1,565 nt of DNA from Escherichia coli (GTDB taxonomy: Bacteria; Pseudomonadota; Gammaproteobacteria; Enterobacterales; Enterobacteriaceae), in the NCBI RefSeq assembly GCF_024223415.1, contig NZ_CP100510.1; one strand, 5' to 3'. Numbering within the stretch: the stretch's first letter is position 1; each line of letters opens with the position of its first letter. Of this stretch, positions 1 to 1,385 are shown piece after piece. The notes under the pieces are model-generated. The model searched no databases and had not been told where the DNA came from. It was given only the letters and a program-made list of their open reading frames with translations. A program made the translations under genes and the position numbers.

Positions 1-49
1 ATGTGCAAATGTAATACCGTCACCCGCGACGATATTCCGTTTGCCATCT

Positions 50-74
50 GGTCAGGGCTTCGCCCCGACACCCC
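50..74. repeat. 25-bp perfect inverted copy of the oriT hairpin segment (exact reverse complement of 1386-1410)
   Basis: GGTCAGGGCTTCGCCCCGACACCCC at 50-74 is the exact reverse complement of GGGGTGTCGGGGCGAAGCCCTGACC at 1386-1410. The asymmetric flanks (1 nt one side, 5 nt the other) also match, so this is a true inverted duplication and not just the hairpin's own near-palindromy. Identity stops exactly at both ends. Confidence 0.9.
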
Positions 75-110
75 GCATCAGTGCGTACGTGCTCAATGTG
101 GTTTCCGGTT

Positions 111-171
111 CTCTTCCGCTTCCTCGCCCACTCGCTCACTAACGTTCGGTCGCTGGGGCTGCGGCGAGCGG
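111..171. other. Conserved ColE1/pMB1 origin-proximal block (candidate primosome-assembly / single-strand-initiation site)
   Basis: CTCTTCCGCTTCCTCGC (111-127) and GGCTGCGGCGAGCGG (157-171) are identical to the flanks of the block CTCTTCCGCTTCCTCGCTCACTGACTCGCTGCGCTCGGTCGTTCGGCTGCGGCGAGCGG that I recall lying about 45-125 bp downstream of the replication start in pBR322/pUC (similar in p15A); the middle is diverged. Same orientation as the oriT match. Function as a pas/ssi site is inferred. Confidence 0.55.
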
Positions 172-476
172 TGCCACCTCTCGCATGTTGTCGGTGATTC
201 CGCTGTTGTTCTTTCGGGGATAAGTCGTCAGATAGCCCTTCAAACGCGCTCAGAAGCTCTCAGACGCACGAAACGGGGTTTAAATGCCCGTCAGGGCATG
301 GAAGGCGCGAAAAACGCTTACAGAGCGTTTCAGGAGGTCAGGCGCGCCGATACCCCTAGCCAGGGGCTTTCAGGTCGCCAGGAACCGCGCCAGCCCCCTG
401 CAAAGCCCATTTGCACGGTACAGGCAGCCACTCGGTTGGTAGGTGGTCGTAGACCGTCGGTGTTACAGCGATGGGG

Positions 477-559
477 GTCTGGGGTTCTCCCCAGACGGTT
501 TCCGGTTGCGCTCAAGGCGCTGCCGGAACCGTGGCGGCTCGATCGTTCTGGAGATCGGG
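477..559. ncRNA. Cluster of three consecutive GC-rich stem-loops; candidate RNA I / RNA II-like antisense-control region (strand, ends and function undetermined)
   Basis: SL1 477-496: perfect 8-bp stem GTCTGGGG/CCCCAGAC, loop TTCT. SL2 497-530: GGTTTCCGG...CCGGAACC outer stem (one bulged T) plus inner GCGC/GCGC stem, loop TCAAG. SL3 538-559: CGATC/GATCG core stem, 8-nt loop GTTCTGGA. Three hairpins in about 85 nt is the RNA I architecture. Weak convergent promoter candidates flank it (see findings). No canonical terminator found. Confidence 0.3.
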
Positions 560-622
560 GAGCAAAAACACGCAAGGGATTTTGAGGCGGCAAAAGAGCA
601 ATGCAGGATAGACAACCCGATG

Positions 623-640
623 TCAAATGTTAACATTTGA
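623..640. repeat. 18-bp perfect palindrome TCAAATGTTAACATTTGA in the AT-rich spacer between the gene's 3' end and the stem-loop cluster
   Basis: Exact self-complementarity across 18 bp, seen directly. Lies in a locally AT-rich island at about 600-670; function unknown (protein-binding site, unwinding element or promoter element). Confidence 0.9.
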
Positions 641-686
641 ATCAGATTGTCCAAAAACGGGGTTTTTGCCTGTGCCTGCCGCTGGC

Positions 687-1166
687 TCAATTTGAAAACA
701 TGGCCATGATTCGGCGCTGAATATCACCGTCTTTGTTGACCAGTGTTTTAGTGACAAACGCCGCGTAGTTTTTAGATGTGTTGTATCCCTTCCAGACTTC
801 ATGTGGATCGAGTGCATACGCACAAACCTTACCAGCAACAGGAATTCTGACTAACGCGTTTTTTGATTCTAAGTAGTTGAGCCAGCGCTTAATTGTGCTT
901 CGGCTAACACCCAATTTATCTGCTAAAAACTGCTGATCGGCAACAACAGCACCGCATGAGGGATCTATGTGCTCAGCTAAAAACGAGTAAAGCGGTATTG
1001 CTACAACTCCCTGCTTGTCCTTCGACAGTTCTCGGATCCTTTCCCAGCCCTTCTGATAAACCTGGGTGAATGGGCCGTTATTTTTCGGATCTGATTCCGA
1101 TTCTTTGTTTAATTTTTCCAGTTCTTTTAGACGCTTTTTTCGCTGCTCTTCAGTCCCGATATACAT
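687..1166 (-). CDS. 159-aa winged-helix (HTH) DNA-binding protein; best guess a small-plasmid replication initiator or autoregulatory maintenance protein (RepA of tiny pKL1-type plasmids, or RepL-like). Family assignment is from memory and unverified; a cargo transcriptional regulator is the alternative.
   Basis: Only long ORF with coding-like composition. ATG is the reverse complement of 1164-1166, preceded by a GGAG Shine-Dalgarno (rc of 1174-1177) with a 7-nt spacer; stop TGA is rc of 687-689. Helix-turn-helix at about residues 77-98 (DQQFLADKLGVSRSTIKRWLNY, encoded about 873-938) followed by a wing-like segment (ALVRIPVAGKVCAYALDP). N-terminal 30 residues are K/E-rich. Upstream region is dense in operator-like repeats. 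Confidence 0.8.
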   Translation of the reverse strand: MYIGTEEQRKKRLKELEKLNKESESDPKNNGPFTQVYQKGWERIRELSKDKQGVVAIPLYSFLAEHIDPSCGAVVADQQFLADKLGVSRSTIKRWLNYLESKNALVRIPVAGKVCAYALDPHEVWKGYNTSKNYAAFVTKTLVNKDGDIQRRIMAMFSN

Positions 1167-1185
1167 GGTAAATCTCCACGGTCTA

Positions 1186-1225
1186 ATGATGGCTCAAATA
1201 TAAGCCATCATAGCTCAAACGTAAA
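1186..1225 (-). promoter_or_regulatory. Candidate sigma70 promoter of the 159-aa gene overlapping a 9-bp perfect inverted repeat (candidate autoregulatory operator)
   Basis: On the minus strand: -35 TTTACG (rc of 1220-1225), 17-bp spacer, -10 TATATT (rc of 1197-1202), predicted start about 25-30 nt upstream of the ATG. Inverted repeat ATGATGGCT (1186-1194) / AGCCATCAT (1203-1211) has the -10 hexamer in its 8-nt spacer. GCTCAAA recurs at 1192-1198 and 1213-1219, 21 bp apart. Promoter assignment is by consensus match only. Confidence 0.5.
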
Positions 1226-1246
1226 CCATGATAGGTCGACCTAGCT

Positions 1247-1292
1247 CACACATGCGTGAGCTAACCTTAGACCACACATGCGTGAGCTAACC
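1247..1292. repeat. Two tandem 20-bp perfect direct repeats CACACATGCGTGAGCTAACC (1247-1266 and 1273-1292, period 26 bp); iteron- or operator-like
   Basis: Exact 20/20 identity seen directly. Each copy has internal dyad symmetry (CTCAC-ACATGC-GTGAG); the first copy extends to an 8-bp stem TAGCTCAC/GTGAGCTA. They lie 22-70 bp upstream of the predicted -35 of the gene. Related AGCTCA/TGAGCT half-sites recur at 1212-1217 and 1304-1309. Confidence 0.85.
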
Positions 1293-1355
1293 CATAATGC
1301 AAGTAGCTAAAAAATCAATAACTTACAAAATCGCCCTTAAATATCTTTTCTGCTG

Positions 1356-1385
1356 AAAGTGTTGCGCAAAGCGGAACACTTTTTT
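1356..1385 (+). terminator. Terminator-like hairpin followed by a T-run on the plus strand, directly abutting the oriT hairpin
   Basis: AAAGTGTT (1356-1363) pairs with AACACTTT (1375-1382), plus an inner CGC/GCG stem around an AAA triloop, followed by TTT (1383-1385) and then GGGG. The T-run follows the hairpin only on the plus strand. No convincing upstream plus-strand promoter was found, so the role is uncertain. Confidence 0.3.

Follow-up and report, generated by a model that had tools for sequence, protein, structure and literature searches.

Cryptic plasmids of approximately 1.5 kb that make up the pKL1/Col(MG828) group, such as pMG828-1, pO26-S1 and pABU, are the closest described relatives of the DNA analyzed here, a 1565-nucleotide stretch from Escherichia coli (contig NZ_CP100510.1 of assembly GCF_024223415.1), referred to below as the window. 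pKL1 itself is reportedly the subject of papers by Burian et al. from 1997, 1999 and 2003. Noncoding, hairpin-rich blocks of a few hundred nucleotides that are exchanged between Rep modules are familiar as single-strand origins (sso) of rolling-circle plasmids and single-strand initiation signals (ssi) of enterobacterial plasmids. Their likeness to the noncoding cassette of the window is one of analogy, the window Rep being weakly RepL-like. One account of pKL1 places oriV upstream of rep together with an IHF box and Rep sites, and describes replication as RepA/oriV-based (PMC3832669). Three further sources (PMC9282650, PMC11389934, PMC10123127) describe pBuzz (Moran and Hall 2019) and other relaxase-less pOriT plasmids as tiny replicons with one rep and two inverse origins of transfer (oriT) that are mobilized in trans. 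pBuzz is unrelated to the window plasmid. It is described as replicating by the rolling-circle mechanism and carrying two oriT copies, whereas the window oriTs are of two types (ColE1 and IncI1) with only an inverted repeat in common, and its mobilization was demonstrated experimentally while that of the window plasmid is predicted from sequence.

The window is a complete circular plasmid of the pKL1/Col(MG828) group, with position 1565 running on into position 1. By megablast it is matched over its full length, at 99.8-100% identity, by many E. coli plasmid records of 1563-1566 bp and by one from Klebsiella. Many 1565-bp E. coli records are 100% identical to it, and the plasmid of strain ABU 83972 is among the full-length matches at 99.8-100%. 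Each matching record has a single annotated gene, 'helix-turn-helix domain-containing protein'. The databases already contain this plasmid, and all of its element types are of known kinds. What appears mildly new is that the Col(MG828) marker is apparently a noncoding cassette common to different plasmids and not a replicon, and that a palindrome at the junction of the two parts of the plasmid stands without explanation. With the pKL1 group the window shares size, layout, the GC-rich cassette, the oriTs and a homologous winged helix-turn-helix (wHTH) Rep (78% identical to the 158-aa RepA), and, in the region upstream of rep, an IHF box and predicted Rep-binding repeats. The 1565-bp type differs in having its own version of 885-1381, which cannot be aligned by megablast, and an IncX4-like junction palindrome with a 21-bp insertion. 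ColE1 has a homologous origin-flank segment (73-185 in the window), whose hairpin is conserved, and bom (1381-1446), and the two elements are neighbors there too. Unlike ColE1, the window is without RNAI/RNAII, rop and mob genes, its elements are rearranged around a common inverted repeat, and an IncI1-type oriT, in place of the ColE1 nick region, is joined to its ssiA-like hairpin.

The two parts of the plasmid are separated by a step in base composition. Overall GC content is 50.9%, with 59.7% at 1-600, 43.3% at 601-1350 and 52.6% at 1351-1565. Two-state segmentation of the circle defined a GC-rich segment at 17-563 (61.6% GC) with the best change-point at 563 and a log-likelihood ratio of 19.6; in 100 shuffled sequences, this ratio averaged 5.2 and did not exceed 10.6. 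Thus, the step that a first-pass annotation, made from the letters alone, had placed near 600 is real and beyond chance. The 60-65% GC claimed there for 61-420 agrees with the measured 60.6%. The 30-40% claimed for the gene was right for the blocks sampled (40% at 841-900 and 30% at 1081-1140), but these are the lowest in the gene; other gene blocks reach 52%, and rep as a whole (687-1166) has 44.0%. Because the lowest blocks had been sampled, the step was overstated, with the contrast being approximately 16 points (60 versus 44) and not 25-30. In 60-bp blocks, GC content drops from 70% (481-540) to 52% (541-600) to 38% (601-660), and this fall coincides with a palindrome at 611-651, in line with the reported coincidence of the step with an AT-rich island and palindrome. 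The return boundary, where GC content goes back up, lies near 1385.

Database searches revealed separate histories for the two parts. Region 1-600 is covered to at least 80% in 478 plasmid records, with IncI1, ColE1 and IncX4 pieces, whereas 601-1350 is covered to that extent in 26 records, all of the 1565-bp type. Searching the halves separately, as the annotation had suggested, therefore returns different plasmid sets. Nor do the halves invariably co-occur, as the cassette is found with several Reps and a related Rep is found without the cassette. The cassette core (83-539; 61% GC), the portion common to all relatives, is retained at 84-100% identity in plasmids with differing Rep modules. 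It adjoins Reps that are 78%, 60%, 46%, 25% or undetectably identical to the window Rep, all weakly RepL/wHTH-like, and is also present in one plasmid (L024) with a ColE1-type replicon encoding RNAI and Rop. The right edge of the cassette falls at 533, 539, 568, 615 or 635 depending on the relative, and the GC change-point lies within that range. In every host plasmid the cassette has 58-63% GC and the remainder 36-49%; for the type reference pMG828-1, cassette windows have 56-59% GC and the rest 23-41%.

Pairwise comparisons locate the points of exchange. Relative to the 1552-bp plasmid L001, which is of the pKL1 type, the window has 6 mismatches in 1-615, an unalignable stretch at 616-673, identity at 674-758, approximately 87% identity at 759-993, high divergence at 994-1385 and identity again at 1386-1460. 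Synonymous divergence in the last 103 codons of rep is approximately 0.70 versus 1% in the noncoding left part, a ratio of approximately 50-fold between rep synonymous sites and 1-615. A 1572-bp plasmid, L014 (NZ_AP027611.1), shares every base with the window from 1382 across the circular junction to 884 but follows L001 within 885-1381. Its breakpoints are at 884/885, inside the HTH-coding region, and at approximately 1381-1386. The segment at 885-1381, which comprises the Rep N-terminal 94 codons, promoter/operator, iterons and AT-rich stretch, behaves as an exchangeable specificity segment, and the window's version of it occurs in only about 26 records of the 1565-bp type. Conversely, the 1304-bp plasmid L022 (NZ_CP100677.1) encodes a Rep 77% identical to that of the window and has the same iterons and both oriTs, with a different GC-rich, hairpin-rich noncoding block in place of the cassette. 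Plasmids like L022, of 1304-1316 bp, occur in Salmonella and E. coli. As judged from these alignments, the cassette and rep modules are inherited separately, an instance of ordinary modularity among plasmids. The layout is old and has been met repeatedly, and is not the product of a single recent fusion. Two modules of different origin joined at 600 had been proposed, with a Rep module on the right. The separate histories are borne out and the right part does contain a Rep-iteron replicon, but a single junction is not, as exchange occurs at 884/885 and approximately 1381, and the boundary zone (approximately 598-688) is a third element, which IncX4 plasmids also carry.

Collectively, these data make it likely that the 1565-bp plasmid consists of a noncoding signal module and a separately inherited Rep-iteron replicon, with the GC step near 563-615 as the module edge. 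The first module would extend from approximately 1386 through position 1 to approximately 600, with its core at 83-539, and would supply noncoding, hairpin-forming, cis-acting signals, namely two convergent oriTs, a homologue of the ssiA/n'-pas-zone hairpin and further hairpin blocks. In the second (approximately 616-1385), Rep is predicted to bind an operator and two iterons, and replication presumably begins at the IHF site and AT-rich stretch beside the iterons. The cassette might provide ssi/sso-like priming signals in single-stranded DNA (ssDNA) for primosome or primase loading on the lagging strand; alternatively, such signals could be used for complementary-strand synthesis following conjugative entry. 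The oriTs would permit mobilization if a co-resident ColE1-type or IncI1 plasmid supplied the relaxase. GC richness may stem from a need for stable hairpins in ssDNA, and AT richness from the melting of the origin and from a protein rich in Lys, Glu and Asn. Having diverged in iterons and Rep N-terminus, sister plasmids that share the cassette could thereby coexist, and coexisting sisters may recombine via the cassette, swapping rep modules. More tentatively, the Col(MG828) marker could be a portable noncoding cassette of approximately 0.46 kb bearing priming/establishment signals, which moves between unrelated replicons (several RepL-like Rep lineages, an RNA replicon of the ColE1 type and IncX-type origin flanks) and, being common to compatible sister plasmids, acts as a recombination hub for rep-iteron swaps; we regard this extension as possible, though rather less probable than its converse.

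Structural properties of the cassette are consistent with signals that act as ssDNA. Folded as ssDNA, region 76-600 has z = -2.4 on both strands versus +0.6 for the rep gene. Three consecutive stable hairpins form a cluster at 477-557, and folding of 470-560 gave -26.8 kcal/mol for the plus strand and -24.5 kcal/mol for the minus strand (z = -5.2 and -5.5, respectively), with none of 200 shuffles as good. The triple-hairpin sequences are too conserved for a covariation test. The cluster was considered as a possible G4-type ssi, a signal of three adjacent hairpins recognized by primase. Pieces of the cassette (114-331, 82-412 and 340-473) also adjoin replication genes of IncX4, IncX-like and MOBC plasmids. 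The core is carried by 750 of 5426 complete E. coli genomes (~14%), nearly always on plasmids. In this genome search, one genome had 22 cassette-matching places, and a total of 8 places were chromosomal. Matches in phage collections were either plasmid-like small contigs or vector-like origin-flank fragments, and phage homology of the cassette was rejected. Three cassette contigs of 1.4-1.9 kb (OX638291.1, OR844749.1, OR844798.1) are filed as 'Escherichia phage' and are probably small plasmids that co-purified with phage.

The cassette also contains a counterpart of the ColE1 origin flank. Window 73-185 matches ColE1 1405-1295 (71%, E=1e-11), upholding the ColE1-like origin flank that had been called in the left part. 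RNAI of ColE1 lies at 645-749, which puts ori near 1195 and the matched segment therefore 100-210 bp downstream of ori. Published sources describe the ssiA/n'-pas primosome assembly site as exposed in the zone downstream of ColE1 ori (PMC3167613, PMC3640518). Within the match, 116-171, tentatively assigned to the minus strand, is a homologue of the imperfect hairpin of the ColE1 origin flank, with 16 pairs. Its pairing is 97% maintained across the alignment, with compensatory change at 4 pairs; shuffled and slid controls were far lower, and only 0-3 of 500 shuffles reached the observed values. ColE1, IncX4 plasmids and others retain the hairpin core, and in a further plasmid of the ColE1 type the element lies 45-135 bp from the predicted ori. 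Five of 9 sequences have a G-T wobble that weakly favors the minus strand, and by analogy ColE1 polarity would also put the active hairpin on that strand.

Several observations weigh against the two-module interpretation or its proposed mechanism. Dinucleotide signatures differ less between the two parts (delta* 0.116) than within them (0.133 and 0.168); the parts differ in base composition only, and at such length the dinucleotide signature is uninformative on foreign origin. Selection, and not recent exchange, might account for part of the cassette's high conservation. Blocks 331-600 yielded no usable covariation, and over the whole cassette, on both strands, covariation outside the ssiA-like hairpin was confined to scattered single-sequence events. 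By itself the ssiA-like hairpin is not unusually stable (z = +0.45), and its strand assignment depends on one G-T wobble column. Moreover, the placement of the hairpin relative to the iteron origin is ambiguous; if ColE1 polarity applies, the hairpin would serve the fork coming through rep, approximately 1.1 kb from the iterons.

Other explanations of the GC-rich part account for some of these data. The step might be purely functional, with one half of an old, co-inherited plasmid being noncoding and rich in hairpins and the other, AT-rich half holding the gene and origin. Indeed, the design of a GC-rich cassette and AT-rich rep was found again in all relatives compared, even where the GC-rich sequence itself is different (L022), and the dinucleotide signatures of the parts are alike. 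This recurrence across the family means that the GC contrast probably reflects function (hairpins versus origin and coding) as much as ancestry. Co-inheritance, however, conflicts with the ~50-fold gap in divergence between 1-615 and rep synonymous sites, with the clean segment swap in L014 and with the presence of the cassette beside many Rep lineages and a ColE1-type replicon, which renders a functional cause alone unlikely. We consider even less probable that the cassette is an RNA-primed origin of the ColE1 kind, or a regulatory RNA gene, with the small HTH proteins as accessory regulators. Plasmids with the cassette alone in common are still typed Col(MG828), the cassette contains the ssiA-zone homologue, and a weak promoter-like site on the minus strand (633-605) faces into the cassette. 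That site, though, lies outside the cassette in L005, L006, L017 and L024, and a promoter scan found no promoter-like site inside 76-600. A permissive Rfam scan (E<=1) of the window detected no RNAI or other family, returning only two chance-level matches (proV and Xist). The same database recognized RNAI in ColE1 and L024 and gave no matches in L009, L005, L006 or L017; lacking a match in L009, we took ColE1 itself as the reference. All complete cassette plasmids examined carry either a Rep gene of their own or an RNAI replicon, and pKL1 replication is described as RepA/oriV-based (PMC3832669).

A cer-like multimer resolution site for host XerCD would suit a noncoding cassette of similar size, and high-copy plasmids without partition usually need such a site. 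Yet the best match to an XerC-spacer-XerD core has 11 of 18 specified bases, below the mean of shuffled sequences (12.2; maximum 14), and this candidate was rejected as scarcely plausible. Least credible is a protein-coding left part. The 194-aa open reading frame (ORF) at 1-585 is long, and pieces of it are annotated 'hypothetical protein' in a few records, but it has no Pfam match, its translation is rich in arginine, as is usual for ORFs that arise by chance in GC-rich DNA, and its start codon is inside an oriT. Furthermore, 1-bp and 2-bp indels break the frame in relatives 92-96% identical to the window; frameshifts in such close relatives rule out the ORF and indicate that the cassette is noncoding. 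A noncoding signal module joined to a separately inherited replicon therefore remains our preferred interpretation, and the further features of the plasmid are described below with this in mind.

Transfer functions are represented by two oriTs near the circular junction. Positions 1-75, continuing into 1553-1565, are an IncI1 (R64)-type oriT on the minus strand, 92% identical over 75 nt to the DNA directly upstream of nikA in the IncI1 plasmid pESBL-12. Its nick-region motif, GCACAT/CCTGTCCCG, straddles the window end and start, with the consequence that the record begins within this nick region; by presumed analogy with the RP4/R64 nick region, we place the nick within CATCCTGTC. The left arm of the 17-bp repeat of this oriT is more degenerate in the window than in the IncI1 plasmid. 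On the plus strand, 1381-1446 is a ColE1-type oriT (bom), 95.5% identical over 67 nt to ColE1 1528-1462, in which an inverted repeat at 1387-1408 is followed by the nick region ...TATACTGG/CTTA, with the nick presumed from ColE1 to lie at 1442/1443. In the oriT alignment, no position varies from the repeat through ...TATACTGGCTTA. This oriT matches approximately 1900 plasmids, mostly mobilizable. The annotation was correct that a ColE1-like oriT is present, but assigned it to the left part, where the oriT at 1-75 is of the IncI1 type. The core GGTGTCGGGGCGAAGCCCTGACC occurs in the oriTs of both ColE1 and IncI1, with window copies at 1387-1408 and 51-72. Because both oriTs carry it, the window has a long inverted repeat with arms of 34 nt at 50-83 and 1377-1410 (88% complementary). 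The oriTs are thus of different types, convergent and approximately 120 bp apart. Relaxase and mob genes are absent from the plasmid, rep being the only gene, so transfer would need a relaxase in trans.

The AT-richer part contains the sole credible gene, rep (687-1166, minus strand), which encodes a 159-aa predicted wHTH initiator of the pKL1 RepA family. The protein matches Pfam HTH_36 (E=1.7e-6), with a weak match to RepL, and is 78% identical to the 158-aa RepA (WP_000469298-type) of the common 1549-1552-bp Col(MG828) plasmids. Hundreds of homologues reside on contigs of 1-4 kb, one of which is named 'RepA protein' by one source. Rep is rich in Lys, Glu and Asn, with GC content at second codon positions (GC2) of 36%. 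A promoter scan identified a promoter-like site for rep on the minus strand (-35 at 1225-1220 and -10 at 1202-1197; span 1186-1225). A palindrome, ATGATGGCT-N8-AGCCATCAT, overlaps it at 1186-1211 and is probably a Rep operator; L001 keeps this palindrome despite divergent flanking DNA. The motif TGGCTCAA/TTGAGCCA occurs three times, at 683-690 (the rep stop codon), inverted at 877-884 (inside rep) and at 1190-1197 (in the operator palindrome); these copies may be additional Rep-binding sites. A repeat search identified two 25-bp iterons at 1242-1292, each an inverted repeat (GCTCAC-N6-GTGAGC). Identical iterons are found in 1304-bp plasmids, where Rep is 77% identical. On the plus strand, an IHF consensus site, AATCAATAACTTA, is located at 1313-1325 in the AT-rich stretch beside the iterons and is the one match in the window to the pattern WATCAANNNNTTR. 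No DnaA boxes were found in the window with TTWTNCACA or a relaxed pattern. This arrangement, with iterons and IHF site upstream of rep, fits the layout reported for the pKL1 oriV (PMC3832669). Directly before the ColE1-type oriT, the repeat search also detected a hairpin followed by a T-run (1356-1382, plus strand). Folding of 1350-1412 gave z = -5.1, and the pairing is kept in L001 via compensatory AA..TT to GG..CC changes.

The junction element at the GC step (598-688) has invariant flanks, a hypervariable palindromic centre (611-651) and a small A/T hairpin (653-673). Its flanks read CAATGCAGGATAGACAAT ... GATTGTCC ... GCCTGCCGCWGGCTC, and hairpins of approximately 20 bp form in all five centre variants (z = -3.2 to -6.2). 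IncX4 plasmids each carry two copies and match window 593-698 at 92-95% identity, and the window version has a 21-bp insertion missing from the pKL1 type. A terminator, a protein-binding site and a single-strand signal are all possibilities for its function. Other copies were seen at 2493-2596 of L003 and 1742-1846 of L008, and the element is relocated in L005.

The modular structure has a bearing on plasmid typing. As plasmids that share the cassette alone are typed Col(MG828), the sequence recognized by typing tools appears to be the cassette and not rep. A single Col(MG828) 'replicon type' would thus lump compatible plasmids with differing initiators. The type is assigned to relatives of 1.45-2.3 kb, with L005, L006, L010, L024 and L026 among the plasmids so typed. 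Mobility prediction for such plasmids is inconsistent: the 1565-bp type is called non-mobilizable despite its two oriTs, while the sibling of 1549 bp is listed as mobilizable. The plasmid offers a compact case of tiny-plasmid assembly from exchangeable cis-acting cassettes and leaves general plasmid biology unchanged. In E. coli strain LR-62-2, a plasmid of the 1565-bp type coexists with a 1549-bp plasmid of the pKL1 type (L026 and L027, both typed Col(MG828)), which indicates that the two types are compatible and would be able to recombine through the common cassette. Strain Z1323CEC0004 likewise has two cassette plasmids, of 1552 bp and 1506 bp.

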